From a virus (Duplodnaviria; Caudoviricetes), in IMG/VR virus record IMGVR_UViG_2974602649_000001, positions 1 through 64,000 of that record: a DNA stretch of 64,000 nucleotides; one strand, given 5' to 3'. The notes under the pieces were generated by a model, which searched no databases, was not told where the DNA came from, and worked only from the letters and a program-made list of their open reading frames with translations. A program made the position numbers and the translations under genes. Shown piece by piece: positions 2,913 through 44,439 of this stretch (positions are counted from its first letter, which is position 1; each line of letters starts with the position of its first letter).

Positions 2913-3911
2913 ATGTTTCAAGAGAGTTTGTCCTACCGTCCGTTTAAGTACGCCTTTGCTGTAGAAGCTGCTAAAAGGCAAATGATTGACCTTCATTGGG
3001 ACGTACACCAGCTAGATTTGACTGATGACGTTCGTCAGTACCACAGTCCCGGTGGAATGAGTACACCAAGCGTAAGTCATGATGTGAACAAAGAGATTTT
3101 GCGTAAATGCATTACCCTTTTCACCGAAATGGACAGGGAAGTTGCCGGTGGTTATGCTCGAATTCTCCCGTTTGTTAAGAACAACGAGATTCGTAACTGG
3201 ATCATCACAGCAATGTGTAAAGAGGTTACTCACCAACGAGCATACGCAACTGCTGCTGAGACGTTCGGCTTTGACAACGAGGCATGGGAAGGCTTCTACG
3301 TTTACAAAGAGATGACTGACAAGCTTGATGTAATGTCGGACATCATGTGGGACGAAGCCGATAGACCAGAGATGAAGTTCTGCATTGGTTTGTCTCAAGT
3401 ACTACTGGGTGAAGGTATTGGTCTGTTTGGTGCATTCAGTGCCTTGCTTAACTTCAAGCGTTGGGGTAAGATCATCGGATTCAACGATGTGAACCAATGG
3501 TCGCTGGTAGACGAGCAAGACCACGTAAGTACTAACATCCTGATTCTCAAGGAAGCTCGTAAATTCCTGAGTGAAGCTGAGAATATTGCCCTTGACAAGA
3601 TGATTCGTAAGATGATTCAGGCATACGTCGAGGCTGAGCACAAGCTGATTGACCTGCTGTACGTTGATGGTGATCAGGAAGGCTTGACAACCGCTGAGGC
3701 AAAGGATTATATTGACTACCTTGGTGAGCTTCGTGAGATGCAACTGGGTCTACGTAAGGCTCGTGATGTTCGTGAGAACCCGCTGATGTGGATGGAATAC
3801 ATGCTGACTGGTGCGAAGCATGACAACTTCTTTGAGAAGCGAGTCACTGATTACTCTCATGCTAAGCTTGAAGGTCCGGTGGATTACACCCGATTCCTAC
3901 ATATGGTATAA
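2913..3911 (+). CDS. nrdB: ribonucleotide reductase beta subunit
   Basis: Y-R-P-F-K-Y N-terminus, EVTHQRAY, EGIGLFGAF, DEQDH, NFFEKRVTDY. Confidence 0.97.
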   Translation: MFQESLSYRPFKYAFAVEAAKRQMIDLHWDVHQLDLTDDVRQYHSPGGMSTPSVSHDVNKEILRKCITLFTEMDREVAGGYARILPFVKNNEIRNWIITAMCKEVTHQRAYATAAETFGFDNEAWEGFYVYKEMTDKLDVMSDIMWDEADRPEMKFCIGLSQVLLGEGIGLFGAFSALLNFKRWGKIIGFNDVNQWSLVDEQDHVSTNILILKEARKFLSEAENIALDKMIRKMIQAYVEAEHKLIDLLYVDGDQEGLTTAEAKDYIDYLGELREMQLGLRKARDVRENPLMWMEYMLTGAKHDNFFEKRVTDYSHAKLEGPVDYTRFLHMV

Positions 3912-5422: not shown

Positions 5423-6043
5423 ATGACTCGTGAAGAATTGGAAAAACAAAAGATCCTTACCCCAGAAATTCTGGCAATGGCACCAAAAGATGCTACACAC
5501 TTCCATCCATACAACGATGGTTCTGAAGTAGGTGGCGGGTCGTGGTGTGCTGCATTCTTCCACAAGAATGTGGAGGGTATTGACTTCTTCAGCTACGGTG
5601 AAGACTTCGGCTGGCGTGCTCACACTGACTTCGGTTCGTGCCCAATGAGATTCAATCGACTGATTCCAATCAATCGTGAGGAGAAGGTTGACCCTGTAGT
5701 TGCTGAAGTGGTTGCACAATCGTTTGACAACATTGACTTCGACTCATACCCTCTGCCAGAATGGGCATTGTGTGAGAACAAGCACAAGGTTCTTGTCCCG
5801 GGTACGCAACTGGCAACTAAAGATGGTCGTCACACTGGTAACGCTCACATCATCCGAACTCACACTGCTGACTGGGATAGTGAAGTTCGTGTTTACCAAT
5901 GCTTGACAGATGCGGGCAACAAGATTAATATGCTGGAATCTGAACTACGCCACCAGTTCTACATCGGTACATTCATCAGTCACGTTGATGATGTGCTTGA
6001 CAAATTTGATCGTCAAAACCTGTTCTTTAAGGAGCCTAAATAA
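5423..6043 (+). CDS. hypothetical protein
   Basis: 206 aa ORF with AAGGAG RBS. Confidence 0.75.
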   Translation: MTREELEKQKILTPEILAMAPKDATHFHPYNDGSEVGGGSWCAAFFHKNVEGIDFFSYGEDFGWRAHTDFGSCPMRFNRLIPINREEKVDPVVAEVVAQSFDNIDFDSYPLPEWALCENKHKVLVPGTQLATKDGRHTGNAHIIRTHTADWDSEVRVYQCLTDAGNKINMLESELRHQFYIGTFISHVDDVLDKFDRQNLFFKEPK

Positions 6044-8149: not shown

Positions 8150-8300
8150 TATGATTTTTCAAAAACCGATCTCATTTTTCCGAGTCCAATTTTTGCTCCA
8201 AAATTCCCACGGGGGGTGTTTTAGGGAAAATGGATTCTGTTTTCGATTTTGGAATTTTGGGAAAAGTCGATGAGGGAATTCTGGTGGGAAATGTGGACGC
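8150..8300. other. A/T-tract-rich non-coding segment, candidate left boundary of a long terminal repeat
   Basis: Spaced T and A tracts, G6 run; GATTTTGGAATTTTGGGA resembles GATTTTGGATTTGTGGGA at 21174. Confidence 0.45.
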
Positions 8301-8456
8301 GAATGAGATGCATTCTCAGATGCTTATAGGATCTGTTCTCATTCTCTATTGCAAATGCAAACGGTTCTGCTTTCCATTCTCGAAAAGAAAGCTTTTCTAA
8401 CAGTCGGGCACTCTCCCGCCGACCCCTCTGGGCTGGCAAGATGTGTATATGTGCTT

Positions 8457-8484
8457 AGTCTATCAAATCCAACAGCAGTGTCAA
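8457..8484 (-). promoter_or_regulatory. leftward sigma70 promoter
   Basis: minus strand TTGACA-16bp-TAGACT. Confidence 0.6.
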
Positions 8485-8494
8485 TAATTATTTT

Positions 8495-8528
8495 TGGCAC
8501 GTATTATGCAATTGCAAAAGTCATGCCA
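8495..8528. promoter_or_regulatory. head-to-head pair of sigma54 (-24/-12) motifs
   Basis: + TGGCACGTATTATGCA (8495-8510); - TGGCATGACTTTTGCA (8528-8513); 2 bp gap. Confidence 0.65.
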
Positions 8529-8600
8529 ACTTAAATTTCAGGCTCCCGCCCTGTTTGTCTCCGGTGCTCGGCTCCATGCCTGCGTTGCCCGCTTGTGAGT

Positions 8601-8628
8601 ATTATACACCCCTGAAAAGCAAAAGCAA
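8601..8628 (-). promoter_or_regulatory. leftward sigma70 promoter
   Basis: minus strand TTGCTT-16bp-TATAAT. Confidence 0.65.
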
Positions 8629-8648
8629 CAACTATTTACAGCGATTGT

Positions 8649-8664
8649 TGGCACGTTCTTTGCT
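8649..8664 (+). promoter_or_regulatory. sigma54 -24/-12 motif
   Basis: TGGCACGTTCTTTGCT fits TGGCACG-N4-TTGCW exactly. Confidence 0.7.
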
Positions 8665-8782
8665 ACGCGTACACGCGCGGTCCTTTAATGCCCGGGTATA
8701 AAGAAAAGTGAAATTAAGTATTGACGTACATTCTCCATGCTGTATGATGTGCCCATACCAAACAAACACGGAGCAAAACACC

Positions 8783-9019
8783 ATGCGTTCTATCAAGTCC
8801 CTAGCTCGTGAGGCTTACATTAACCGATACGCTTTCCACAAAGTAACCATTGCAACAGATGGTACAATGCTGGGGCATTGGGAAAAGACTTGGCTTGATT
8901 CGGTGAAGTTGGGTAATATCAATGATTGTTCCACCTTTACAAAATCGAGCAGAACAGGTGTGCAATTCCGTAACCGTGACTCTGTAGTCTTCACATTCGG
9001 AATGGATGTTTTGAAATGA
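8783..9019 (+). CDS. early hypothetical protein
   Basis: GGAG RBS, downstream of promoter 8721. Confidence 0.7.
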   Translation: MRSIKSLAREAYINRYAFHKVTIATDGTMLGHWEKTWLDSVKLGNINDCSTFTKSSRTGVQFRNRDSVVFTFGMDVLK

Positions 9020-9029
9020 GCGTGGTCTA

Positions 9030-9317
9030 ATGCAAGGTAAGTGCCAGAATCGAAACGAATTGAAGGCAGCTAAGGAGGCTGTCTTTCAATTCCTGAAAAG
9101 GAACGGACATAAACCGTTCCAGCAATCTCAGTTAGTCCCGTATATGACCCGGGTGATAGGTGACGTTCAACATCAGGTTAAGACTGATATTAAATGGTAC
9201 ATTGATAACCTTTGGGTGGAAGTGATAGCACATGGTGTTTACCGTGTGCGACTTGATCGGGATATGAGCCGTTTAAAATATCGCAATCAATGTTCAAAAA
9301 AGTTCTTGACTAGGTAA
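9030..9317 (+). CDS. early hypothetical protein
   Basis: ORF track. Confidence 0.55.
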   Translation: MQGKCQNRNELKAAKEAVFQFLKRNGHKPFQQSQLVPYMTRVIGDVQHQVKTDIKWYIDNLWVEVIAHGVYRVRLDRDMSRLKYRNQCSKKFLTR

Positions 9318-9362
9318 ACCATTCCTGTAGAATGGGTGACACAAACAAAGCGGAGCGGTAAA

Positions 9363-9584
9363 ATGAAACACAGTACTTTCATGGAAACCTACAGTGGCGA
9401 AGTTCGTTGCATGGTGACTTACACTGATAATTTTGGTCGTACGATGAAAGGTATTGCCTTGCAGGAACCAACAAAAAGCATTGTTACAGGAAAGTACTGT
9501 GTAGACGTTGATAGTTTCGTCAATCGTGTGCCGCTTAGCCGTATTCACAAAATCGAACGTACTGATAAACGTTGGAGCAACTAA
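9363..9584 (+). CDS. early hypothetical protein
   Basis: GGAG RBS after promoter 9306. Confidence 0.7.
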   Translation: MKHSTFMETYSGEVRCMVTYTDNFGRTMKGIALQEPTKSIVTGKYCVDVDSFVNRVPLSRIHKIERTDKRWSN

Positions 9585-9585
9585 C

Positions 9586-9975
9586 ATGCAAGCTTCGAAA
9601 GTAAAAGTCCGCTTGAAAGATATTCGCCACGGTGTTAAAGTGTTCACAGCGCATCCAGCTTATGGGATCGATGAATGCACTTTGCTTAGCCGACCATTCC
9701 ACAAGCGTGGGAAAATTGTTGGCAGTCTGGGCAACTGGGTAAAAGTTCGTGTTCCTGTATCTACATTGTTCGATGACAGAGGGTATTACGAAGCAGAACA
9801 TTCATTGCGTGACATGGGTATAACATCCACGTATAATGATCGGCGTACTTTCTTCAAAAGAAAACATGCTGAGCAATGGATGGATCAGCAATCCATGTGT
9901 CCACGTTTCCAAGCACGACAAGCGGATCATGAGGAGTGGTGCAAGACACTAGACTGGTACATGGACGATATGTAA
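9586..9975 (+). CDS. early hypothetical protein
   Basis: GGAG RBS. Confidence 0.7.
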   Translation: MQASKVKVRLKDIRHGVKVFTAHPAYGIDECTLLSRPFHKRGKIVGSLGNWVKVRVPVSTLFDDRGYYEAEHSLRDMGITSTYNDRRTFFKRKHAEQWMDQQSMCPRFQARQADHEEWCKTLDWYMDDM

Positions 9976-10049
9976 AGGTTGCACCAAAGCTATTGCTTTC
10001 CTGTAATAGCTTTGCTAGAATCTTTCCTACACAACTGGAGCAACATAAA

Positions 10050-10406
10050 ATGATCGAAGTAAAACGCGGCACTATCTACAAACACCGTATCAACGGCATG
10101 CAATACAAGTGGGATGGTGCAAGCTGGGAATACAAAAGTAAAGTGGATGGCCAATGGTGGCCGTCCTTGTCCAGCAATTTCCGCTTAATTGAAAAGCTTG
10201 AAGAAATCGAAATCGCACCAACTCGCATATTAACCGCGCATGACTTCGACTATAGTCTGACACTTGATCGAACCGAAGAGGGAATGTTTGTTGTAACCTA
10301 CGGTGAACAAGTCACAGCGTGGCAAAAGTGGCAAGATGCGTTCAATGACTTTACAGAATGCGTTGCCCATGCCTCTGACTTGAAAGGGTTACATTACATT
10401 CACTAA
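10050..10406 (+). CDS. early hypothetical protein
   Basis: GGAG RBS after promoter 9993. Confidence 0.7.
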   Translation: MIEVKRGTIYKHRINGMQYKWDGASWEYKSKVDGQWWPSLSSNFRLIEKLEEIEIAPTRILTAHDFDYSLTLDRTEEGMFVVTYGEQVTAWQKWQDAFNDFTECVAHASDLKGLHYIH

Positions 10407-10492
10407 AGCTTTTAACAAAAGCTGTTGACAACGTTAGCAGCTTTGATTAGAATCTTTACCCATAACGCAACACAATCAACTAAGGAAAAGCA

Positions 10493-10624
10493 ATGACCAT
10501 CTTCTTCGCTACTCGTGCTAAACTTCGTGCCTTCTCTTCCAAGAACGGTAAGAAAGTAGACAACGGAGCTAACGCACCGGTAGGTAAGCGCTACGCCTTT
10601 GTAATTGCAAAGGGGAGCAACTAA
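10493..10624 (+). CDS. small basic early protein (43 aa, MTIFFATRAKLRAFSSKNGKKVDNG...)
   Basis: AAGGA RBS after promoter 10425; below ORF-track cutoff. Confidence 0.6.
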   Translation: MTIFFATRAKLRAFSSKNGKKVDNGANAPVGKRYAFVIAKGSN

Positions 10625-10625
10625 C

Positions 10626-10814
10626 ATGGTTGTAGTTATCGGTAGTGCAACTAAAGTAAACTCCGTAAATGGCCACGTTCGACAATTCGATATTGTCAAA
10701 GTAAAACGAAGCACATCGTATGGTTGGGAAGTTGAAGACGCACACGGAAAACATCACATTCTTTTTGATTCGTTTGATGATGTTGTCGTGTTGTTTATGG
10801 GAGAAGAGAAATGA
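10626..10814 (+). CDS. early hypothetical protein
   Basis: GGGAG RBS. Confidence 0.6.
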   Translation: MVVVIGSATKVNSVNGHVRQFDIVKVKRSTSYGWEVEDAHGKHHILFDSFDDVVVLFMGEEK

Positions 10815-11137
10815 AACTGTCCGAAATTCTAGCAGGTGCTATTGAAGTATACGCAGCACATGAAGGTTTGTTTATGTGCCACATTGTGACAGGTGTGTAT
10901 AAGGAAACTTTCCCGTATGCGCACTTTGAGCACACCGGTGATGGTGAGGCTTTGAAGCGACTTATCAATGCCAAACTAAACTACCATGCGACACTTGACA
11001 TTTATCTGTCAGCAAAGGATAAGGATTATCCGGGCTTTATCGATGAAAAAATCGACTGGGGTCATCCTGATTGTTTGAATTATCGTGTTGACTGGTATCG
11101 CGCACTTGTAGTAGAATTGCAGGCACAAGGTAGGTAA
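10811..11137 (+). CDS. early hypothetical protein
   Basis: ATGA overlap, GGAG RBS. Confidence 0.7.
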   Translation: MKLSEILAGAIEVYAAHEGLFMCHIVTGVYKETFPYAHFEHTGDGEALKRLINAKLNYHATLDIYLSAKDKDYPGFIDEKIDWGHPDCLNYRVDWYRALVVELQAQGR

Positions 11138-11141
11138 GAGC

Positions 11142-11233
11142 GTTTGTTATATACACCCGTTGACCTAGCCGATACGCTGGACGGGTAAAGGCCACGCTCT
11201 AAAGGGTGGTTAGTGAGGGTGTATATAACAGGC
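11142..11233 (+). other. long intergenic stem-loop (candidate RNase III site or small RNA)
   Basis: GTTTGTTATATACACCC ... GGGTGTATATAACAGGC 17-bp stem enclosing further hairpins. Confidence 0.6.
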
Positions 11234-11513
11234 TAACTTAATTCGAAGTAGCTTTACTTTAACTGAAAAAGGATATATGATTATGGCTCGCAAACTGACT
11301 GTCAAAGACTTCGCAACCGCTTATGAATATGAGCAACACAAACGTGGCGTGCGCAAAGCTGACAGCAACAAGCGTACCAGTTCTACCGGTCGTCGTGACT
11401 TCCACATTTTTGTTCCACACACAGCGGAAAACAACTAAATTAAGTAGTTGACACCCACTGTAAACCCTGTAAAATACCAAGCATCAAGACAGCAAACACG
11501 GAGCAACACAAAA

Positions 11514-11813
11514 ATGGCACGTAAAATCACCACTGACGCAATCAACGCTTTCATGGCTGGTGAAAAGTTCAACCGTGACAATACCATGGTAAGTGTCGGA
11601 CCTAATACTGGTGCGTGTGGCTTACATTTGCATGGTAACCTGATTGCTACGCGTGAACGCGGGTTGGGTGAAATTGAAATCTCAAATGCTGGTTTCTTTA
11701 CCAACACAACCAAAGAGCGATTGAACGGCATCCCGGGTGTAAGTATTTGCCAGAGGAAAGGCGTCTGGTACTTGAACGGTAATGAGTGGGATGGTTCTTG
11801 GACCAAAATTTAA
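11514..11813 (+). CDS. early hypothetical protein
   Basis: GGAG RBS after promoter 11448. Confidence 0.75.
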   Translation: MARKITTDAINAFMAGEKFNRDNTMVSVGPNTGACGLHLHGNLIATRERGLGEIEISNAGFFTNTTKERLNGIPGVSICQRKGVWYLNGNEWDGSWTKI

Positions 11814-11907
11814 TCGAAAGCTTTTGAATATTAGGTGTTGACAAGGTTAGCACCTAATGACATAATCTTTCTCACAAACAACGCAACATCATTCGGAGCA
11901 ACAAACC

Positions 11908-12351
11908 ATGCAACTGACTTTCTCGCAAATCAAAGCCATCAAATCGTTCTGTGAAGACCTGTTCAGCACCCCGGACTGGCGGGAAGTGGTGGAACAAATC
12001 GCTGACGATGAAACGGACTTTGAAGTTGATAACGTCCGTTTCATTCACACCGATTCGATTGACAGTGTGCTAGCTGATGAGTTAGAAGGTGATGAGTATG
12101 TGTTAGGTTGCTTTAACGCTAACGTCATTGCGGATGTTACCGGCTGGCCAGAGGTTTTGATCGAAGCCGCCAAAAAGGGTGAGGCTTACAAAGAAATTGG
12201 TGAGGCTCTTATTGATGGTGGATTCGTGGAAGCATTGGCAAAGGCTTACTCCGAGGCTGACGGATACGGCCATCACTTCAATTCCTATGATGGGAATGAA
12301 GAAGAGTTGAATGTTAACGGTTCGATGTTCCACGTATTCGACCAGCACTAA
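11908..12351 (+). CDS. highly acidic early protein, candidate DNA-mimic/antirestriction protein
   Basis: about 33 D/E versus about 8 K/R in 147 aa; own promoter. Confidence 0.5.
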   Translation: MQLTFSQIKAIKSFCEDLFSTPDWREVVEQIADDETDFEVDNVRFIHTDSIDSVLADELEGDEYVLGCFNANVIADVTGWPEVLIEAAKKGEAYKEIGEALIDGGFVEALAKAYSEADGYGHHFNSYDGNEEELNVNGSMFHVFDQH

Positions 12352-12493
12352 GTAATAGACAAAGCCCCTTAACTGGGGCTAAGTCGATAGAAAAGATTGA
12401 TTGACAAGGATGCCAGTTGTGCTAATCTAACCCTGTAGACGGTTGATTTAAGCAGTAGCCGCCAATGACGTTATCTTATAACTGAGGTGTGTT

Positions 12494-12715
12494 ATGAATC
12501 CTAGTCGTTATCGTGCTAACGTTTACGCATTGGCTAACCACGCCAGTGCAATGACTGTAGAAGGCTTGCAGCATGCAATATTAGAGGATTGGAAGAATCC
12601 TCAGTGGCCAGCAATCCTATTCGATGGCATGAATCTTGCCTTGCGTAGAAAGATGGGCCGCAATGCGTATGCTCAGTGGTTTAACAGCCTCCCGATTGAG
12701 GAGTCTGATAAATGA
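12494..12715 (+). CDS. early hypothetical protein
   Basis: GAGGT RBS. Confidence 0.65.
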   Translation: MNPSRYRANVYALANHASAMTVEGLQHAILEDWKNPQWPAILFDGMNLALRRKMGRNAYAQWFNSLPIEESDK

Positions 12716-12948
12716 AAAAGCTTGCCACCTACACCGTCACCATGCTTGCATACAACGTGCCAGTTGTGAGGCAGGCAACAATCTACGCTGAGGCTGAGCC
12801 AAACAAGCGTGGGGAAACTTTCGAGGTAAGCACCCACACGGGCGCCCCCGGTGTGCTGTGGGAGTTCCAACCGTTCGCCACCTTGGAAGAGGCAACAGTC
12901 TACGCTCTGAGGTTCTTAGGTGGAACAACCCTTACACAGAAACTTTGA
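12712..12948 (+). CDS. early hypothetical protein
   Basis: GAGGAG RBS, ATGA overlap. Confidence 0.65.
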   Translation: MKKLATYTVTMLAYNVPVVRQATIYAEAEPNKRGETFEVSTHTGAPGVLWEFQPFATLEEATVYALRFLGGTTLTQKL

Positions 12949-13285
12949 AAATAACACTTGACGCCTATTTTGAATGCTGTAGAATGGGCGTCAAGAAAGA
13001 GGAACGGCGATAACGCCAAAATAACCCTCTAGGGAGAAAGTTATGGAATTCAAAACAATCTGCGCTTGCTGTGGTGAAGAAATCAAGCAAGATGTTGTTC
13101 ATGCTGACCCTTGGGGCGATGGTAAAGATTCAACGTTCTGTTCGTTTGAATGTGTGGAACATGTTGCAGATGAGTGGCGTGAGTACATGGATAGTTACGA
13201 TGTCTGACTAAAGCCCCTAATTGGAGTGGAGCCCGCCTAGTGCGGGCTGAGTCAGTAGAAAACAAATGGTTCTGAGGGCTTTACA

Positions 13286-13540
13286 ATGGTTTCCACTTTC
13301 GCTACAATGCTGGTCGTATGCACAATGTCGCAATGCAGTGATTACGGTGCGGACACGGCAAGCTTAGAATTCTCGCAACAACAGAACACAAAGCGTGTTC
13401 AAAAGGAACTTGACAACGCCATGCAAAACGAGCATGATATGCAAAAGTTCCTTGATAAGTATCAAATCGGGGAAACAGTGTTCGAGATAGTAAGCATTGA
13501 TGTAGAAAACCGAACACTGCAAGAAAAAGAAATTCCATGA
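13286..13540 (+). CDS. early hypothetical protein, possible signal peptide
   Basis: hydrophobic N-terminus followed by Cys residues. Confidence 0.6.
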   Translation: MVSTFATMLVVCTMSQCSDYGADTASLEFSQQQNTKRVQKELDNAMQNEHDMQKFLDKYQIGETVFEIVSIDVENRTLQEKEIP

Positions 13541-13621
13541 AATACCGCTTGACTCACCTGTTAACCGGTATTATTATAACCACACTGATTTACACAGCAA
13601 TTCAATTCGGAGCAAGTTAAA

Positions 13622-13834
13622 ATGACAAATCTAACAGTTCGCCAGATACAAGCCCTTGATGTTCGGATGTTTGAAGAGTCTGCTAAAGACTTGATCAAGC
13701 ATGGTGCTGACTGGGTGCATACTGTTGGTGATTTGCTATTGATTGTTGCTCATGATTTCACGGTTTGGTTGTGTGAGCTTCCAGCAAATGAAATCGACTT
13801 ACTCAAAGCTAAAATGATTAAGAGGGTTTTGTAA
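13622..13834 (+). CDS. early hypothetical protein
   Basis: GGAG RBS after promoter 13549. Confidence 0.65.
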   Translation: MTNLTVRQIQALDVRMFEESAKDLIKHGADWVHTVGDLLLIVAHDFTVWLCELPANEIDLLKAKMIKRVL

Positions 13835-14073
13835 TGACTTTGCAACATATCAATCTCGCGTTCCAAGCTGACACTAAGTTTAAGTATCTTGGCTGTGCTG
13901 ATTTAACTGCCCATGCGATGCATAAGATTCCAGTTGGAACTGTTGTAACTCTGAGCCACGATGTGCTAAAGAATGAACTAGATGATTTCTTTGAGTGCAA
14001 ACTGCCAGAGTCTTTTCCGGGTAATGGTACTGCTCAATACTTCAAACGTTCTGAACTCGAAATCATCGGTTAA
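13834..14073 (+). CDS. early hypothetical protein
   Basis: TAATG coupling. Confidence 0.65.
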   Translation: MTLQHINLAFQADTKFKYLGCADLTAHAMHKIPVGTVVTLSHDVLKNELDDFFECKLPESFPGNGTAQYFKRSELEIIG

Positions 14074-14090
14074 TAATTAAGGAGAAAGTT

Positions 14091-14303
14091 GTGTCTGTAG
14101 TTGCTCGTAACACTCGGTTGTATAAAGTCACCATGTCTGACACCGTAAAGGGTCAATCGTTTAGCTTCTCTCAGGAATACGCTGCAACAAAGGAATTTGA
14201 TGCGCGTGTACAGGCTTGGACAGAATACGGGCATGATACAATGGGTTTTGTCTCGAAAAGCTTTAAGGTAGATGACATTCAACTTGTACAGTACAAGGGT
14301 TAA
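14091..14303 (+). CDS. early hypothetical protein
   Basis: AAGGAG RBS, GTG start. Confidence 0.6.
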   Translation: MSVVARNTRLYKVTMSDTVKGQSFSFSQEYAATKEFDARVQAWTEYGHDTMGFVSKSFKVDDIQLVQYKG

Positions 14304-14305
14304 CA

Positions 14306-14611
14306 ATGAACAGTAGGCAACATTTCACTTTAATGGTGGGCGTGGGAGTTGGGTTTGTTGTTCTTGTGTTGGGTGCAATGTACGCACCACCAAAGCCACT
14401 CCCGCCACCAGCACCCCCGAAAGTGGTGCAAAAAGGTGATACTAAAACTGTTCGTGACAATGCAATGTACGCAAAAGTTTTTGATTCTTGCATGGATAAA
14501 TACAGCAACCCTAGCCAGTGTCGGTACACTGCTGAGGAGGCATCCAATACCGAACAGTATTGGGACGGTTCCAAGTGGGTTAAGTTCAACTACAATTTAA
14601 AAGGGGAGTAA
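14306..14611 (+). CDS. membrane-anchored protein with Pro-rich linker
   Basis: N-terminal TM helix, PPKPLPPPAPP, paired Cys. Confidence 0.7.
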   Translation: MNSRQHFTLMVGVGVGFVVLVLGAMYAPPKPLPPPAPPKVVQKGDTKTVRDNAMYAKVFDSCMDKYSNPSQCRYTAEEASNTEQYWDGSKWVKFNYNLKGE

Positions 14612-14617
14612 GTAAAG

Positions 14618-15070
14618 ATGGAATGGTTTCTGATTTATGTTTTCGTCATGATTGAAAAGCTGACAGCAATTCTCGACAAAGGTTACTTTGTCATGTTCGT
14701 CGGTGTTGCTGTGATCTTGTTGTCCTATTTCTTTGTAGGCATCAGTGGTGACACAAACACCACCTACCAAGAACAGCTTGACCGTCCTACTCCAAAGCGA
14801 TTCATTCGCATTGGCAAATGGATGGCAATCCTTGGTTTGATCGGCGGTTTGCTGGGTGAACTTGTACCGGATCAAAAGCAACTCGCAATTATTGTCGGTT
14901 CTGGCGTAACCTATAACGTTCTGACCAGTGAGCCAGCAAAACGCATCGGTGGTAAGGCTATCCAGTTGATTGAAAAGAAAGTGGATGAAGCACTGGGCAA
15001 CGAGGCTACAACGCCCAAAGAGGCACCAAAGAGCGACAACAAGCCAGAGCCGGTAGGTCAGCCTACCTAA
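14618..15070 (+). CDS. membrane protein
   Basis: two to three hydrophobic helices; GGGAG RBS. Confidence 0.75.
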   Translation: MEWFLIYVFVMIEKLTAILDKGYFVMFVGVAVILLSYFFVGISGDTNTTYQEQLDRPTPKRFIRIGKWMAILGLIGGLLGELVPDQKQLAIIVGSGVTYNVLTSEPAKRIGGKAIQLIEKKVDEALGNEATTPKEAPKSDNKPEPVGQPT

Positions 15071-15200
15071 ACACTAAAGCCCCTTAATTGGGGCTTTTTT
15101 GCGTCTGTAGAAAAGTGAAAATAAGTTGTTGACAAGGTAAACGGATCCTGTAGAATGGGCGTCAAGAAAGGGGAAATGTTTCCTCTAAGGAGAAACGCAA

Positions 15201-15374
15201 ATGAACATTCAAGCACGCATTGACTACCTTACCGAAATGCTGGAATCGGCTAAGTATGAGGCAAACGTCAATGTTAACCCCGCTAGAATTGCCTATGAAT
15301 TCTCCGACTTGGTTCGCAACCTAGAGGAGGCAATTGCCACTCTTGAGCATATCAAAGAACTCAAAGCCAAGTAA
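15201..15374 (+). CDS. early hypothetical protein (57 aa)
   Basis: AAGGAG RBS after promoter 15129. Confidence 0.65.
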   Translation: MNIQARIDYLTEMLESAKYEANVNVNPARIAYEFSDLVRNLEEAIATLEHIKELKAK

Positions 15375-15421
15375 TGACAAGCCCCTTAATTGGGGCTAAG
15401 TCAGTAGAAGAGAACTAACAT

Positions 15422-15437
15422 TGTTCCACATGGAACA
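15422..15437. promoter_or_regulatory. parS-like site 1
   Basis: TGTTCCACATGGAACA, one mismatch to the parS palindrome TGTTCCACGTGGAACA; intergenic. Confidence 0.7.
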
Positions 15438-15566
15438 ATCCAAACCAAGGAGGCACCATGGATAAGCAACTGCGCGACATTTTGATTAATGCACTCATTG
15501 CAAACGCTGTAGTTGTCCTGTATGCTATGGTGCATTACCTGAAACCAATCCTCTGGAGTGCTGTAC

Positions 15567-15875
15567 ATGCTTACTAAAGAAATGAAATCGTTCCTTTCTG
15601 ACTGGCTTACGTGGGTAAACATCGGTGCCCCTATTCACGATGTTTTTGAACAGAACGGTCTCTGTTCGAACTTTGACCGCTGGTCAAGCAAACAAGGACT
15701 TGATTTAACTACTTTCGCAAATGGTATCAAGTCCATGAAGCTGGTATTTATCAATGAAGGGCTTGATAGAGAGTTTCCGTTTGATGGTCACGCGGGGAAC
15801 TACCTTGAGGCATTGAAAAGTGCCAGTTTCACAAAGAACCAAATGCGGGTTGACTGGGTGAGAAATCACCTGTAA
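15567..15875 (+). CDS. early hypothetical protein
   Basis: GGAG RBS. Confidence 0.65.
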   Translation: MLTKEMKSFLSDWLTWVNIGAPIHDVFEQNGLCSNFDRWSSKQGLDLTTFANGIKSMKLVFINEGLDREFPFDGHAGNYLEALKSASFTKNQMRVDWVRNHL

Positions 15876-15876
15876 G

Positions 15877-16197
15877 ATGCGAACTGTCAAAGCGACAAGG
15901 CGACCGCTACAGCAAAGCCTGAGACGTAAAGAGGATTGGAGGACCATCCTACGGTCCCCCGAGCCGCTTTCTAGCGCTGATACGCTGGATGCTAGAGCGC
16001 AGGCTATTGATGACTGTAAGTACGCTCTAAAGCTAAATGCGGGACTTTCAAGCTATGCAGCGCTGTGGAATCACTTCGCTATGTGGCTGTACAACAATGA
16101 TGAAATAGTTGTTGACACACACCCTGATCATGCGTATTATCTGGCTATCAAAGAGATTCGGGAAAAGTGGCAAACGTCACAATGTCTTTTGAGGTGA
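15877..16197 (+). CDS. early hypothetical protein
   Basis: ORF track, abuts previous stop. Confidence 0.55.
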   Translation: MRTVKATRRPLQQSLRRKEDWRTILRSPEPLSSADTLDARAQAIDDCKYALKLNAGLSSYAALWNHFAMWLYNNDEIVVDTHPDHAYYLAIKEIREKWQTSQCLLR

Positions 16198-16747
16198 GTA
16201 TGAAAAACATTACACGTTATGAATTCAAACACATTTCAGTTAATGGTGATCCAGTAGCGTGGTTTGTCTTCTATGATGACGATGGGCAACTTGCTCGGGT
16301 TGTGTACACACGGGAAGAGGCTGCCCAATATGAACGAATGGCGTACACTGTCCACCCCGTGTTTGGTGACCCTCAAAATGCGTGAACGCTGGGCAACAAA
16401 AGTTCAAAACGAGTGTGAGACCGCTGGTTTCACATTCACCAAACGAGACGATAACGGGCATTGGGAATGCAAGGACGGTGGCAAGGTTCTGTTTCAATCC
16501 CGTAGCTTAGGTGATGTTCTCCGAAAAGTCGGGAACGCCTTGGAAATTCCAAACTAAGGAGTAACTTGTGATTTATATCATTTTTGCAAATATTCTGGTC
16601 TTCATCATGCTGGCCTTCGCGTGGTCGAGTAATGGGTTAACAAACGTCCTCATTAAAACCATTCTGACCATCCTAGTCGTGATGAACGCGACAATTGCAG
16701 GTGTTGAACTGGGCTTTCTCCCTTCACCTAATTAAGGAGTAATTACA

Positions 16748-16969
16748 ATGTACGAATGCACCCAACACGAAGAACTGAAATCTAAATTTGCAGAAGCCTA
16801 TTACAAGGGGGTCAATGAACCCCTTTCAAAGGAGGAAGACGAACAGCTAAGGACTGAATTCAGAGAACTAGAGGACTCATTAATGGGTGCGATGCCTGAG
16901 AAAGAGTTTCAAGAATTCTATCAGCTAGTACACAATGCTGCATGGGGAAACTCATGTTGGGAACCATAG
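16748..16969 (+). CDS. early hypothetical protein (acidic)
   Basis: AAGGAG RBS. Confidence 0.65.
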   Translation: MYECTQHEELKSKFAEAYYKGVNEPLSKEEDEQLRTEFRELEDSLMGAMPEKEFQEFYQLVHNAAWGNSCWEP

Positions 16970-17302
16970 CCCCTTAATCGGGGCTTTTCTTTATCTGAAA
17001 TTCGTGTATAATGCTTTCCATGGTGTGATTTTCAGCACGAGACAAACACGAATGGTGGGTGTCATTCCCAAGTGGTTATAACAAATTCATTTCTTATTCC
17101 AAAATGATTGTTTACAACGTTTTCAGTTGGCGTATAATGACCACATCAAGACAGGACACACAGTCAAGTCAAAACAAGGAGCGACACCATGCAAGCAATC
17201 AAAGACACCCTCATTTTCCTCGGTTGCTGTGGCATTGTCATCCTTGGTATCTGCGCTCCTTTCCTCATTGTTGACGCACTCCATTACTTTGGGAACTAAC
17301 TC

Positions 17303-17677
17303 ATGACTACTTGGAAACCTACATCTGAACAATCCCGTGAAATCCGCGACTACGCCAAAATGCGTGCCGGTACTGGCTGGGTCAAGTTGGAACTGGGCGA
17401 AAAGGTAAACACAAACCTTGACGCTTGTGCCCGAGGTGCTGTATTCTACAGCCCTAACGTGATGTTGTTCACTGACGACATTCACAACGAAGAAAGTAGC
17501 TATGACTTGGCTGATTTAATCCAGTGGGATGAGTTCCGCAAGAAAGGTGTAGAATTGACTGACGATGGCTGTGCATATCTTGACTTTTATGTGTATGACC
17601 GTGATGGTCTGAATTGCAACATTGCAGTTAGCGTCATGGTTGACGGTAAAGAATCTATTATCCTTTGCGGAGGCTAA
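17303..17677 (+). CDS. early hypothetical protein
   Basis: 124 aa ORF. Confidence 0.7.
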   Translation: MTTWKPTSEQSREIRDYAKMRAGTGWVKLELGEKVNTNLDACARGAVFYSPNVMLFTDDIHNEESSYDLADLIQWDEFRKKGVELTDDGCAYLDFYVYDRDGLNCNIAVSVMVDGKESIILCGG

Positions 17678-17787
17678 TCTACCTTACTGTTGAAAAGTTT
17701 TAAAATAAGGGTTGACACCTTACCCTAAAGTGATAGAATGAACCACATAGAGAGGCGAAACGCCTCAGTCATTAGAGGTAAGGCGTC

Positions 17788-18003
17788 ATGAAAACTATTA
17801 CTTTTGCTGTTCTGATGGTAGTTGGTATCGTTGCTGGTATGAACACATTTGGTCGTGCTGCAATCAATGACTACAACAGTGCAAAGGTTGCAGAAGAGTA
17901 TACACAACGCAAAGCTACCCAACTGGCAGAAGACATTAAAGCTTGTGCGTCTGGTAAAACCACTCTGATTATGGTTGCTGGCAAATTTTGCCACAAAGGT
18001 TAA
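17788..18003 (+). CDS. early secreted/membrane-anchored protein
   Basis: signal-like N-terminus; GAGGT RBS after promoter 17712. Confidence 0.65.
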   Translation: MKTITFAVLMVVGIVAGMNTFGRAAINDYNSAKVAEEYTQRKATQLAEDIKACASGKTTLIMVAGKFCHKG

Positions 18004-18310
18004 TCTTATGAAAATTCAAGTAAAACCCTCACATGTCAAGCGTCGCATGTCGCTTCAATACTCACTTTGGTTACAGGAAAACAAAGGTAAGATATTCACA
18101 GCCACGCTGCATAATATCAACTATTACAAAATCACTGATAGTGATGCACCAATGAAATTGGTTCACATATACGATGCAATTGAAATTGCCCCTTAAATGG
18201 GGCTTTCTTTTGTCTGGCGTTTGTGTATAATGACAGCATACGCTGGGATAGCGTTTCTAAGGTGCGAAGCTGGGCACGAAATAAGCACCGGAGGAGCCTG
18301 AGATTTATGT

Positions 18311-18344
18311 TGGCATGATTCTTGTATTAGCAAAGAGCGTGCCA
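18311..18344. promoter_or_regulatory. second head-to-head pair of sigma54 motifs
   Basis: + TGGCATGATTCTTGTA (18311-18326); - TGGCACGCTCTTTGCT (18344-18329); 2 bp gap; inverted copy of 8491-8546. Confidence 0.65.
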
Positions 18345-18453
18345 GAAAAAAATATTCAAAATAATTGAAAATAGTTGTTGACCTGTTCTGTGATCGGCGT
18401 ATAATTGAACACATCAAGAGGCAACACACACACACACTTAGGAGCGACACACT

Positions 18454-18654
18454 ATGAACCCAGCAATCGCAACCATCCTGATGACCGCTATCGAAGAGTT
18501 CAAAAACGTTAAGCGCAATAAGTCTGGATCGGTTAACGAGACTTCCCGGTTTGCCATCCACAAGCGCGCTACCCGTGCAATTGTTGCCTTGGGCGAAACC
18601 TATGACGATGCCTTCGACATGGTTGCCGAGCTTTCCAAGAAATATGCTGTGTAA
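18454..18654 (+). CDS. early hypothetical protein
   Basis: AGGAG RBS after promoter 18378. Confidence 0.7.
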   Translation: MNPAIATILMTAIEEFKNVKRNKSGSVNETSRFAIHKRATRAIVALGETYDDAFDMVAELSKKYAV

Positions 18655-18747
18655 ATAGTTCAAAATAAGTGTTGACGGGTATTCTGCTTCTCGGTAGAAT
18701 ACCCACATCAAGACAAGAAACACCAACTACACACTAAGGAGCACAAC

Positions 18748-19206
18748 ATGAACGTAATGGCCAAAGCACACAAAGCAGCTAAAACCGCTAAAGCACTGGG
18801 CTCCACCATCGCGTATCGTGAACTGTTCCGTGTTGCCCTCAAGCAAGCCCACAAAGAGTACAAAGCCATGCAAATCGATCCAATGGAAGCCTTGAAACTT
18901 GACACCATCGCTAAGTTTGAAAAACGCTTGAATGAACTGTCTGAACTGCTCAAGGTTAAAGGTGTAGAAGATCAATACATCGTAACCGTTGAAAACATGG
19001 CTGTAGACTTCAACGCTAAAGCCCGCATGCCTTTCTCTGGTATCGAAGGTGCTACAAAGTTCGATAGCAAAGAACATGCCGAACTCGAAGCTAAACGATT
19101 GAAGAACGGTAACAAAGTTGGTGGTGTTGCTGTACGCCTTGACCATCAAATTGAGTTTGAAATGCAAAAACTCTGCCAACTCATCAATGAAATTAAATCG
19201 AACTAA
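18748..19206 (+). CDS. early hypothetical protein
   Basis: AAGGAG RBS after promoter 18672. Confidence 0.75.
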   Translation: MNVMAKAHKAAKTAKALGSTIAYRELFRVALKQAHKEYKAMQIDPMEALKLDTIAKFEKRLNELSELLKVKGVEDQYIVTVENMAVDFNAKARMPFSGIEGATKFDSKEHAELEAKRLKNGNKVGGVAVRLDHQIEFEMQKLCQLINEIKSN

Positions 19207-19271
19207 TGGTTGCAAGGGGCATCTGTAGTTGATACAATGCCTCTACACAAACAAAGGCAGGAGTTGGCTAA

Positions 19272-19460
19272 ATGGCAAAGCGCAGAATCCACACCTATAG
19301 CAACAATGGCAAGAAAGCTGATGTTTACCGTAACAGTGACTTTGAAGAGTATGAGGTGAGATTCTCGGTAGAGGGTGAAGACTTGCCAGATGCCGACTAT
19401 TTCACCAATGACAAGCAGGATGCCATTGAAACCGCAAACCGCTGGATTAATGAGGAGTAA
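19272..19460 (+). CDS. early hypothetical protein
   Basis: AGGAG RBS after promoter 19210. Confidence 0.7.
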   Translation: MAKRRIHTYSNNGKKADVYRNSDFEEYEVRFSVEGEDLPDADYFTNDKQDAIETANRWINEE

Positions 19461-19788
19461 TCAAAATGATTCTCACCATGCACTACAAATGTAACTTGTG
19501 CTGTCAGTGGTTCATCTACTGTAATTGCACATCCAGATACTGGCCCAAATAGCCGTCACACATTCGCCCAGGCACATCAAGTGCTCTGGGTTTTGTGCAT
19601 TCTTTTGAAAATAAAGCTTGCTTTACATACTCACCCATGTATAATGAAACCCATAGACAGGAAGACAGGTTCACAACGAACCACCCTAGTCTCCCATAAG
19701 GCTTTCTAAGCCACTCTAAGCGCTAGGGTATCCAAAGCCACACCCTTGCTCTAAAACCCTCTCAAATCGCACCGTAGGAGCTTTAAAC

Positions 19789-20016
19789 ATGTTGTTCAAC
19801 ATTGACATGTCTGTCACTGTAGATGCTGAAATTGAAAAGGGCTGCAAATCCCGCATTGCACACCTTTGGGATGAAAACGGTAATGACTTGTCCTGCCGTC
19901 TCGGTGTACAACGTACAATCAACGTCAAAGCGGCATGCTCTTATCTGGTGGTGAACCAAAGCGCTGTTAGTGTTCTGACAGAATGTGGTGTTACTGTACG
20001 TCGCGGTAAGGCATAA
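19789..20016 (+). CDS. early hypothetical protein
   Basis: AGGAG RBS. Confidence 0.65.
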   Translation: MLFNIDMSVTVDAEIEKGCKSRIAHLWDENGNDLSCRLGVQRTINVKAACSYLVVNQSAVSVLTECGVTVRRGKA

Positions 20017-20202
20017 GGAGAAACCATGCCGGACGATCTAGACATTGATCAAGAACACGAGTTATCCCTACTATCCTCACTGGTTCAAGTTGGCATAGTA
20101 ATTACTTCACTTCTCTGGTTATTCTCCCAAAGCCCCTCATTGTAGGGGCTTTTCTTTGTTTGTGATTTGGCAAAATCACTACTGAAATATTTACCTCACC
20201 CC

Positions 20203-20232
20203 TTGACAAACCAGTGAATCGATTGCTACACT
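20203..20232 (+). promoter_or_regulatory. sigma70 promoter facing the non-coding palindrome array
   Basis: TTGACA-18bp-TACACT with extended TG. Confidence 0.55.
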
Positions 20233-20514
20233 AAAGCTACATGCGACGAAGGAAGCATGTATGTATTATCTATATGTATACCTTATTGTATGCGTAGCAT
20301 ACGACACTACCCCTCCTCATGTGCATAGCACATATCATGCCATCCTCATAAGAAAGCAGAACAATAGATGACCACATAAGGTCATCATGCTTTTGCCTTT
20401 GACGTACTGCAATACTACCCATGTGCAAAGCACATAAAGAACAGTTGCAGTACAGATACCTTATCAGAGACTAATACCCCGTAGGCAACGCCTACAAATA
20501 CCCCTTCCCTCATG

Positions 20515-20530
20515 TGTTCCACATGGAACA
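20515..20530. promoter_or_regulatory. parS-like site 2
   Basis: TGTTCCACATGGAACA. Confidence 0.7.
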
Positions 20531-20734
20531 TAGTCCTATACAAGCCTTATACTCGTTGTGTGTGAAACACACCAATGCTTAGAACTTCGCGGCATTGCCG
20601 CAAATACCCCTCTCACAAAGACACCTTTTCCCTAACAATTCAGTTCACGGGCAAGGCTGGCATATGGTACATATGGCTAAGCCGCGCTATCTTGCGATAG
20701 TCAAGGAATATTTATTAAATCACTCTGACTACAG

Positions 20735-20750
20735 TGTTCCATGTGGAACA
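20735..20750. promoter_or_regulatory. parS-like site 3 (inverted)
   Basis: TGTTCCATGTGGAACA, reverse complement of sites 1 and 2. Confidence 0.7.
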
Positions 20751-20941
20751 ATTCATAATTAATCACCCATATCAATACTTCACGGGCAATAGTTACAATC
20801 AATTAGAGAAATCATGTGGCTCATGTCATACTATGCACTTAGTAGGAGAACGCCCCGCAACGGGGTTGCAATCCATGCCCTCACTCGCCTACTGATTACC
20901 TACCCATACCGATCACACCGCCCTCAGGCAGGGGATAAGCG

Positions 20942-20969
20942 GTGTCCTATAATCTGCATTATGTTAAAT
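20942..20969 (+). other. dif-like XerC/XerD recombination site
   Basis: GTGTCCTATAA-TCTGCA-TTATGTTAAAT: 11-6-11 geometry, XerD arm identical to the gammaproteobacterial dif arm, XerC arm ends in ATAA. Confidence 0.8.
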
Positions 20970-21290
20970 TGACGTATGCGTAAAGGAGGCAATCGCTTAG
21001 CAAGTCCCATGCCAATACACCTTCCTTTTCAAATAATAAATCGGTTGACTGGTCTCACGGATTTTGATATTCTAGAGAGGGCCGGGGTATGCCCAAAGTC
21101 CGGGGCATTAAACCCACATACGCAATCTCCTTTGGGATGGAGTACCCACATGCTCAATGACGAGGGTTGCAGGGATTTTGGATTTGTGGGAGAATGGTAT
21201 TGCTGGGAAATCGACTTTCCAAAATAGGGGGAATGGGGTTTTCAGGGGATTCACTTTTCTCTAAGTCTGTGATTGATAAATCACAAGCAA

Positions 21291-21358
21291 AGAAAAGCCC
21301 ACCGATTAAGGTGGGCACACTCAGTCAAGTGCTGGGCAGTCTCACCGATTAAGGTGAG
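21291..21358 (-). terminator. terminator for minus-strand operon, with duplicated hairpin
   Basis: AAAA-GCCCACC-GATTAA-GGTGGGC, then CTCACC-GATTAA-GGTGAG. Confidence 0.75.
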
Positions 21359-43547: not shown

Positions 43548-43622
43548 TCCGGGTTAGCTCAGTGGTAGAGCAGAGTCTTGATAAGGCTTTGGTCGGTGGT
43601 TCGAATCCATCACCCGGAACCA
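43548..43622 (+). tRNA. tRNA-Ile(GAT)
   Basis: cloverleaf, loop TT-GAT-AA, TTCGAAT, encoded CCA. Confidence 0.92.
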
Positions 43623-43627
43623 AATAT

Positions 43628-43701
43628 GGGAAAATAGCTAATTTGGTAGAAGCTGGGGGCGGAAACCCCTGTAGGTCTTGGTTCGATTCCAAGTTTTCCC
43701 C
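43628..43701 (+). tRNA. atypical/degenerate tRNA, probably Phe(GAA)-derived
   Basis: acceptor GGGAAAA/TTTTCCC and T arm intact; anticodon arm GGGGGCGGAAACCCCT lacks U33; no CCA. Confidence 0.6.
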
Positions 43702-43710
43702 ACGTATTAT

Positions 43711-43786
43711 TCCTCGGTAGCTCAGTTGGTAGAGCGCCTGACTGTTAATCAGGTGGTCATTGGTTCGAGTCCAGTCCGGGGAGCCA
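43711..43786 (+). tRNA. tRNA-Asn(GTT)
   Basis: canonical cloverleaf, CT-GTT-AA, CCA. Confidence 0.95.
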
Positions 43787-43790
43787 ATTT

Positions 43791-43866
43791 AGGTTACTAG
43801 CTCAATTGGAAGAGCAGCGGATTCCAAATCCGCCGGTTCGGGGTTCGAATCCTCGGTAACCTGCCA
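43791..43866 (+). tRNA. tRNA-Trp(CCA)
   Basis: cloverleaf, TT-CCA-AA, CCA end. Confidence 0.93.
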
Positions 43867-43938
43867 AAGTCAGATGGTCTTTGTTAGACTGTTAAAACTC
43901 ACCACCCTCCTAAGGTGGTGATCCATTCAGGAGATGAA

Positions 43939-44124
43939 ATGAAGCGCGAAGTGAAAGATTTGATGCGTGTTTATCAGTGTTGTCCCGGTCATGATGATTG
44001 GCCTTGTGACACATACAAAAACAGGCGTTCAAAGAAAGCTCGTTCACGAGACATTGCCAAAGAGCATCGTTATGTAAGGCGAGTAAAAAAGCAAAACTTG
44101 AAAAAGGAGATTGAAAATGACTAA
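43939..44124 (+). CDS. small basic protein in tRNA cluster
   Basis: AGGAG RBS; CCPGHD motif, Arg/Lys-rich. Confidence 0.7.
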   Translation: MKREVKDLMRVYQCCPGHDDWPCDTYKNRRSKKARSRDIAKEHRYVRRVKKQNLKKEIEND

Positions 44125-44283
44125 GTTTTATGATGCAACAAAAGAACACACCAAGTTTGAAAAGTCTGAAGGTAAATCGAAGGCTCACCCAAACAAAGGT
44201 CTGACTTCCCGCAACCCATACTCGGGTAAGTCGAAGTCGTAAGTCGCTCAAGGGCAGCGAGTTAGAAATGCCCACAAGAATAC

Positions 44284-44359
44284 GCTGTCATAGCTCAACG
44301 GTAGCAGCAACTGTTTTGTAATCAGTAGGTTGGGAGTTCAAATCTCTCTGACAGCACCA
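44284..44359 (+). tRNA. tRNA-Thr(TGT)
   Basis: GCTGTCA/TGACAGC acceptor, TT-TGT-AA, CCA. Confidence 0.9.
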
Positions 44360-44363
44360 ATAA

Positions 44364-44439
44364 CTCCTCTTAGCTCAGTTGGTAGAGTGCCCTGTTTGGA
44401 ACGGGGAAGTCGAAGGTTCGAGTCCTTCAGGGGTGACCA
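44364..44439 (+). tRNA. tRNA-Pro(TGG)
   Basis: cloverleaf, TT-TGG-AA, CCA; one acceptor-stem mismatch. Confidence 0.88.

Follow-up and report, generated by a model that had tools for sequence, protein, structure and literature searches.

Conserved host-type parS and dif-like sites in the non-coding DNA of a large lytic-type Pseudomonas phage without recognisable cognate proteins

The first 64 kb of the viral genome IMGVR_UViG_2974602649_000001 (hereafter the window) carry, in non-coding DNA, three parS-like centromere sites and one dif-like Xer recombination site, which are centred on a gene-free gap of about 1.1 kb (20153-21296) and accompanied by sigma-54 promoter motifs. These sites are present far beyond chance expectation, are conserved among relatives and are found without cognate phage proteins. 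The most economical reading, and in our judgement a probable one, is that they would be bound by the ParB and XerC/XerD (XerCD) proteins of the host. As a more tentative proposal, which we regard as a serious possibility without giving it even chances, the gap and two sites in the early region may together act as a cassette without proteins of its own, at which chromosome-maintenance and transcription factors of the host dock, with maintenance of the phage as an episome as its purpose.

The complete record comprises 103,218 bp (100% complete according to CheckV) and encodes RNR, NAMPT, glutathionylspermidine synthase, DNA and RNA ligases, TerL, portal and capsid proteins, and a tRNA cluster. 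TerL similarity places the phage with the Felix-O1-like Pseudomonas myoviruses, the closest cultured relatives by TerL identity being vB_PpS_SYP (SYP; 70%, host P. plecoglossicida) and vB_PsaM_M1 (M1; 65%). These two were compared with the present phage together with the relatives designated here as G001 (107 kb), G002 and G003, the metagenomic relatives L183, L189 and L190, the more distant Pseudomonas phages Amme-3 and UAVern, and the genome G004 (85 kb, TerL 40% identical). The early region (8.7-20.1 kb) has a typical early layout, with small plus-strand open reading frames behind many strong sigma-70 promoters on the same strand (within 8.7-18.7 kb), and those of its proteins that were tested match only families of unknown function. 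An earlier note on this DNA, made from the sequence alone, had described these promoters as rrn-like; the promoters are there, and the adjective is merely a label. The early block closes at a plus-strand terminator (20129-20152) and is followed by the gap, whose other border is a convergent minus-strand terminator (21316-21297). Because the open reading frames within 20.2-21.3 kb have no homologue in the relatives, the gap is treated here as non-coding. No Rfam family scored above threshold between 7.5 and 22.5 kb. The public sequencing runs containing this stretch are all metagenomes, with no RNA run among those listed, and contigs of a wastewater strain with 95-98% identity span the module.

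The 16-mer TGTTCCACATGGAACA is present in three exact intergenic copies, as the earlier note had reported, and each of them agrees at 15 of 16 positions with the Pseudomonas parS, for which the P. aeruginosa reference is TGTTCCACGTGGAACA (PMC4368675). All three copies therefore match the 16-bp inverted repeat of the chromosomal parS class (TGTTNCACGTGAAACA) at 15/16. Within the 103 kb, no other sequence comes within three mismatches of the P. aeruginosa parS, and shuffled sequence yields a mean of 0.08 matches at up to two mismatches. The first copy, parS-1 (15422-15437, plus strand), has a terminator hairpin on one side and the ribosome-binding site of a small open reading frame on the other, at the edge of a cassette shared with Amme-3. 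The other two are located in the gap: parS-2 (20515-20530, plus strand), which, taken with a 4-nt 5' extension, has its orthologues in the CACG-extended parS of G001 and SYP, and parS-3 (20735-20750, minus strand), an inverted copy of the 16-mer located 191 bp upstream of the dif-like site.

Perfect 16/16 parS sites are found in SYP, G001, G003, Amme-3 and UAVern, and consensus-class TGTTCCACGTGAAACA sites, two to three in each genome, in L183 and L189. SYP has five distinct parS sites, two of them perfect, one of which is repeated in the end repeat of the record; G001 has two sites, G003 one, Amme-3 three and UAVern four. Reversed-pattern controls gave no match in the relatives. Where the context was checked (SYP, Amme-3 and UAVern), all sites are intergenic except the two-mismatch site of SYP, and they sit in the early region or in a gap between convergent gene blocks. 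A search of IMG/VR with the bare 16-mer returned at least 120 unrelated single matches and was uninformative. As a separate observation on the surroundings of parS-1, the cassette at 15144-15408 (a promoter, a gene of 57 amino acids and a terminator) shares about 89% DNA identity with the otherwise distant P. putida phages of the Amme-3 group, and this homology ends 14 bp before the site. A terminator followed by the motif AAGTCAGTAG is repeated at 12362, 13230, 15077 and 15379 and resembles a junction between mosaic modules.

The single dif-like site (20942-20969, plus strand), also listed in the earlier note, consists of a XerC-type arm GTGTCCTATAA, the spacer TCTGCA and the XerD arm TTATGTTAAAT. 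When compared with the dif of P. aeruginosa, formed by GATTCGCATAA, TGTATA and TTATGTTAAAT (PMC3025954 supplement), it agrees at 21 of 28 positions, with 11/11 in the XerD arm and 7/11 in the XerC arm, and it has the layout of a Xer site, namely 11-bp arms, a 6-bp spacer and the inner ATAA...TTAT symmetry. Eight phages (the present one, G001, SYP, M1, G004, L183, L189 and L190) each have a single site of this 11+6+11 layout, always within an equivalent gene-free gap of about 1 kb and downstream of a palindrome array. In six of the eight, a parS lies 130-235 bp upstream of it; M1 and L190 have no parS. The XerD arm is exact in seven of these phages and ends in C in the eighth, like the dif listed for strain PA14, while the XerC arm is partly conserved, the flanks have diverged and the spacer varies both between phages and from that of the host, several spacers sharing its outer bases (TGTATA). 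Conservation among relatives had been named beforehand as a check on the whole idea, and in a four-way alignment the parS and the dif-like core are indeed the only parts to stand out as conserved, the non-coding DNA around them having diverged. A combination of conserved arms and variable spacers would fit a working Xer site, and since the spacer is unlike the chromosomal one, the reaction to be expected would be recombination of phage with phage. No accessory sequences were recognised by eye at the dif-like site, and KOPS (FtsK-orienting polar sequences; GGGNAGGG) and DnaA boxes are few in the genome and uninformative.

The absence of cognate proteins, noted at first for the window, extends to the whole genome and to three relatives. 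In the present phage, G001, G003 and SYP there was no match to ParB_N, HTH_ParB, AAA_31 (ParA type), Phage_integrase, Sigma54_activat or Peptidase_S24 at E-values of up to 0.1 or 1, depending on the search, in searches that did give matches in control genomes. The phage does not resemble the phage-plasmids of the P1/N15 type, as neither ParA, nor ParB, nor an S24 repressor is encoded; replication-initiator genes were not searched for. A different candidate is a DndB-family protein (PF14072) of about 485 amino acids, whose gene lies within about 20 bp of a parS in SYP (L121:5226-6680), Amme-3 (L167:3494-4957) and UAVern (L168:5449-6912). DndB presumably belongs to the ParB/sulfiredoxin fold. 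This protein was set aside as the parS binder of the present phage, since its gene is absent from this genome and from G001 and G003.

The one position at which the three copies depart from the reference is the same in all of them, a central G-to-A change that gives CACATG in place of the CACGTG core. This core matters for ParB affinity, and P. aeruginosa ParB does bind the natural sites parS5 and parS10, which carry A at the same position, though weakly (PMC4368675). The change has a genome-wide counterpart: CACGTG does not occur at all in this phage, compared with 24 occurrences in SYP, 17 in G001 and 8 in G003. The genome lacks 14 of the 64 palindromic hexamers (CACGTG, GTGCAC, CAGCTG, CTGCAG, GGTACC and GTCGAC among them), as against 22 of the 4032 non-palindromic ones, and each relative avoids a different set, a depletion that is classic restriction-site avoidance. 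CACGTG is likewise missing from the distant G004, whose only parS has the CACATG core as well. Thus both CACGTG-free carriers of parS have CACATG, and the genomes that contain CACGTG have the canonical parS. In the orthologous 20-mer, G001 and SYP have two overlapping CACGTG, both of which are altered in the present phage by CpG-to-TpG and CpG-to-CpA transitions. We therefore attribute the CACATG core to the genome-wide loss of CACGTG, seen also in the independent G004. That the core was given up and the other 15 positions were kept argues that the parS is used, and CACGTG-free genomes would represent a natural experiment in which a functional site has been reshaped by restriction avoidance, and not lost.

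The sigma-54 motifs claimed earlier are likewise in place. The pattern TGGCAC-N5-TTGCW has three exact matches (8649 on the plus strand, 9031 and 18329 on the minus strand) against 0.08 expected, and none of 300 shuffles reached three; one-mismatch copies lie at 8495 (plus), 8513 (minus) and 20999 (minus). The exact matches have the GG-N10-GC spacing of the sigma-54 promoter consensus. The head of the early operon is a conserved non-coding control region (8404-8725), which shares 72% identity over 342 nt with the SYP intergenic region 11750-12083. It includes a 34-bp palindrome of two head-to-head sigma-54-like motifs (8495-8528), just upstream of a minus-strand sigma-70 promoter (8484-8457), and the exact consensus at 8649-8664 (plus strand), which is followed about 70 bp downstream by the first strong early sigma-70 promoter (8721-8748). 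SYP has full copies of the palindrome (11959-11992 and 3662-3695), and G001 matches only its right-half motif (99930-99945, minus strand); in the alignment with SYP, the 8649 site has retained its GG and GC elements as well as both flanks, with an altered spacer. A second conserved non-coding element (18204-18345) is 88% identical to the SYP intergenic region 2218-2350, is an inverted repeat of 8483-8561 from 10 kb away, and has another copy of the 34-bp palindrome at its end (18311-18344), which contains the exact consensus at 18329-18344 (minus strand). The remaining exact match (9031-9046, minus strand) overlaps the start of the open reading frame 9030-9317 and is possibly incidental. The claim that all motifs are intergenic thus holds for the parS and dif-like sites and fails for this one.

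Beyond the dif-like site, at a distance of 30 bp, a one-mismatch copy (20999-21014, minus strand) points back over the module, and in G001 an exact copy lies 58 bp beyond the equivalent site (5741-5756, minus strand). Exact copies are also found beside parS in Amme-3 and UAVern, and others in UNO-G1W1 and Boevelstad. Several of the copies form palindromes, which is atypical for promoters, and no upstream site for a host activator was identified; the 34-bp palindromes, lying upstream of sigma-70 promoters, could equally be operators. Two side observations concern these elements. The element of about 130 nt at 18204-18345 stands behind an extended -10 promoter (TGTGTATAAT) and shows higher conservation than the genes next to it; either a small RNA or an operator array is conceivable. 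In the Otagovirus UNO-G1W1 (PP551948.2), a phage without parS, an identical exact sigma-54 16-mer is found near both ends of the record (40-55 and 98061-98076), which suggests an end repeat of about 551 bp.

What, then, would such a set of sites do? According to the proposal of episome maintenance, the three parS sites would serve as loading points for host ParB, XerC and XerD of the host would act at the plasmid-type dif-like site, and host RNA polymerase with sigma-54 would use the sigma-54 promoters. In an infected cell that goes on dividing, the phage chromosome would behave as a circular replicon subject to positioning, partition and resolution to monomers. This would be a carrier or pseudolysogenic state with delayed lysis, for instance under starvation. 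Only a replicon that persists through cell division would have any need of partition and dimer resolution, which, by analogy with the Bacillus phage phi29, favours this purpose over others. The idea that host proteins are the binders was already part of the earlier note; the part that stands is that selected cis-acting sites match the consensus of host factors with no cognate phage protein, whereas the binding itself is what we infer. The further suggestions of that note, namely recruitment of SMC, an appearance as 'self' and titration of host factors, are likewise hypothetical.

Several points weigh against this proposal. None of the three copies of parS retains the intact CACGTG core, and the altered core probably lowers ParB affinity; the XerC arm here, with its 7/11 match to the P. 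aeruginosa dif, is weaker than any other in the set. Xer sites of the chromosomal type normally depend on FtsK at the septum. No parS is found in M1, G002, L190, VCM, UNO-G1W1 or Boevelstad, so the site is dispensable, and the tight linkage of parS and dif is not required by an episome. Neither an S24 repressor nor any other marker of lysogeny turned up, TerL searches of 185,579 species genomes (one per species) and of PLSDB returned no close relative, and DNA of this phage appears in metagenome runs only and in no isolate sequencing run. Finally, the plaques of SYP are clear (PMC10580904).

The linkage just mentioned is better accommodated by an alternative in which the sites serve circularisation at entry, in the manner of Cre-lox in phage P1. 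The parS-dif segment would lie in a terminal repeat, with a copy at both ends of the virion DNA; ParB would bridge the ends, and XerCD would recombine the two direct dif-like sites into a circle protected from exonucleases. The SYP record does have an exact 351-bp end repeat that holds both a parS and the dif-like site, the two sites keep their order and their distance of 130-235 bp in diverged phages, and non-host spacers fit an exchange of phage with phage. However, the repeat in SYP may be an assembly overlap, the 127-bp end repeat of G001 is located elsewhere and looks like a k-mer artefact, and the UAVern record has none. Moreover, M1 and L190 have a dif-like site without a parS. We consider this explanation unlikely, if still worth keeping in view. 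An integrative use of the same Xer site, as in IMEX-type (integrative mobile elements exploiting Xer) lysogeny, would make the phage a hidden temperate one that integrates at the host dif via XerCD. It would account for a conserved Xer site in the absence of an encoded integrase, and for the outer bases that several spacers share with TGTATA. Nevertheless, the spacers differ from that of the host and from one another, the gene content is lytic (RNR, NAMPT, a tRNA cluster and no repressor), and the TerL search, weak evidence in this respect with its one genome per species, revealed neither a prophage copy nor an integrated form. This is the least probable of the explanations considered here.

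The remaining two alternatives concern parS and its binder. The phage could manipulate the host, either with its many replicating copies titrating ParB away from the host origin, or with ParB spreading that damps early transcription as a timer. The location of parS sites inside and just after the early operon would suit such a role, as would the observation that excess ParB silences parS-bearing plasmids (PMC4368675). We find it very unlikely in view of the number of sites (merely one to five per genome), the weakened core that this phage tolerates, the linked Xer site, which titration leaves unexplained, and the complete phages among the relatives that do without parS. Slightly more improbable still is that phage-encoded DNA-binding proteins that we failed to recognise are the binders, the likeness to host sites being convergent or historical. 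Most early proteins have no known function, and a DndB-family protein is encoded beside parS in SYP, Amme-3 and UAVern; but the present phage, G001 and G003 have parS without DndB, ParB_N or HTH_ParB, and it is difficult to see how several lineages would have sites identical to the host centromere (16/16) and to the XerD arm (11/11) if host proteins played no part.

Each component of the proposed cassette has a precedent, and the designation as a new system in the earlier note was too strong. The closest one is that of phi29 and Nf from Bacillus subtilis, virulent phages whose genomes carry parS sites for the host Spo0J (ParB) and Spo0A boxes (PMC2731898). Like the present phage, phi29 is of virulent or lytic type and has several host-type parS, no ParB of its own, and sites for a host regulator of nutritional or developmental state; it is, however, a podovirus with a 19-kb protein-primed linear genome, for which the payoff is entrapment in the spore. 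The present case, in contrast, involves a host that does not sporulate and a genome of about 100 kb, in which parS is linked to a Xer site and sigma-54 promoters take the place of the Spo0A boxes as regulator sites. Phage P1 also pairs a centromere with a site-specific recombination site (for circularisation and dimer resolution) in a genome of about 100 kb, but it is temperate and encodes ParA, ParB and Cre, none of which is encoded here and which the host would have to supply. Xer sites are exploited by plasmids (cer, psi) and by IMEX elements such as CTXphi, VGJphi, TLCphi and the dif-integrating double jelly-roll phages. These share with the present site the 28-30-bp arrangement of XerC arm, spacer and XerD arm, the absence of an own recombinase and a spacer unlike that of the chromosomal dif. 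The known users of Xer are plasmids, filamentous phages and tailless phages, whereas this is a large tailed phage of lytic type for which neither accessory sequences nor an integrated form came to light. A host sigma-54 promoter is used by the virulent Pseudomonas phage YuA, according to a passage in PMC10914365 that cites Ceyssens 2008; YuA is an unrelated siphovirus, and the motifs described here are in part 34-bp head-to-head palindromes and flank a parS and a dif-like site. SGI1, which hijacks the parABS of IncC plasmids (PMC10954446), similarly is a mobile element that has the cis site alone and relies on the ParB of another replicon, but this ParB belongs to a helper plasmid and not to a chromosome, and SGI1 is not a phage. 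We found no report of a linked and conserved module of parS and dif-like site in large lytic-type Pseudomonas phages; the sole genome paper behind this negative is that of Amme-3, which mentions neither parS nor ParB.

The broadest form of the proposal, namely that large lytic-type Pseudomonas myoviruses practise plasmid maintenance without proteins of their own, by means of a host centromere, a Xer site (with ParB perhaps as a synapsis factor for XerCD) and sigma-54 promoters that read the nutrient state, is one that we hold doubtful. Its consequences would nonetheless reach beyond this phage. To our knowledge, there is no accepted mechanism for starvation-induced pseudolysogeny or the carrier state in Gram-negative hosts, and the cassette, if the proposal is true, would be its molecular basis. 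Selected sites for the segregation and dimer-resolution machinery of the host can occur, free of genes and invisible to gene-based annotation, in phages that are annotated as strictly lytic, and these sites also predict the host, parS and Xer arms both being of Pseudomonas type here. They offer a testable route into the persistence of phage DNA in non-growing or slowly dividing Gram-negative cells, for which cultured relatives with perfect sites (SYP, Amme-3 and UAVern) and tractable hosts of the Pseudomonas putida group exist.

The upstream half of the gap is occupied by the palindrome array that the earlier note had pointed out. A sigma-70-like promoter (20203-20232, plus strand) leads into about ten unrelated short palindromes (20238-20675), with stems of 6-7 bp and loops of mostly 3-4 nt, interspersed with C-rich ATACCCC-like motifs. 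The ten palindromes with 6-bp stems in 20.2-20.8 kb make this the densest 1-kb bin of the genome. Such palindromes number 8-12 in the 1-kb bin just upstream of the parS and dif-like sites in this phage, G001, G003 and SYP, compared with about one per kb elsewhere, and the equivalent array is the densest bin in G001, G003, SYP, G002 and L190, of which G002 and L190 have no parS. A replication origin and a genome-end structure are candidates for this array.

Some further non-coding motifs and genes were observed in the window. An A/C-rich leader motif (CATCAAGACA..AACAC) is placed between early promoters and ribosome-binding sites at 11482-11499, 17144-17161 and 18706-18723, and may be a translational or Hfq/Crc-type element. 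The tRNA cluster comprises six genes (43548-44439), to one of which ARAGORN assigns an odd two-base anticodon. A G-rich motif (CCAAAATAGGGGG..GGGAT; 21172-21244), placed at the far border of the gap, is kept in SYP and M1, and a similar motif precedes the early control region at 8200-8270.

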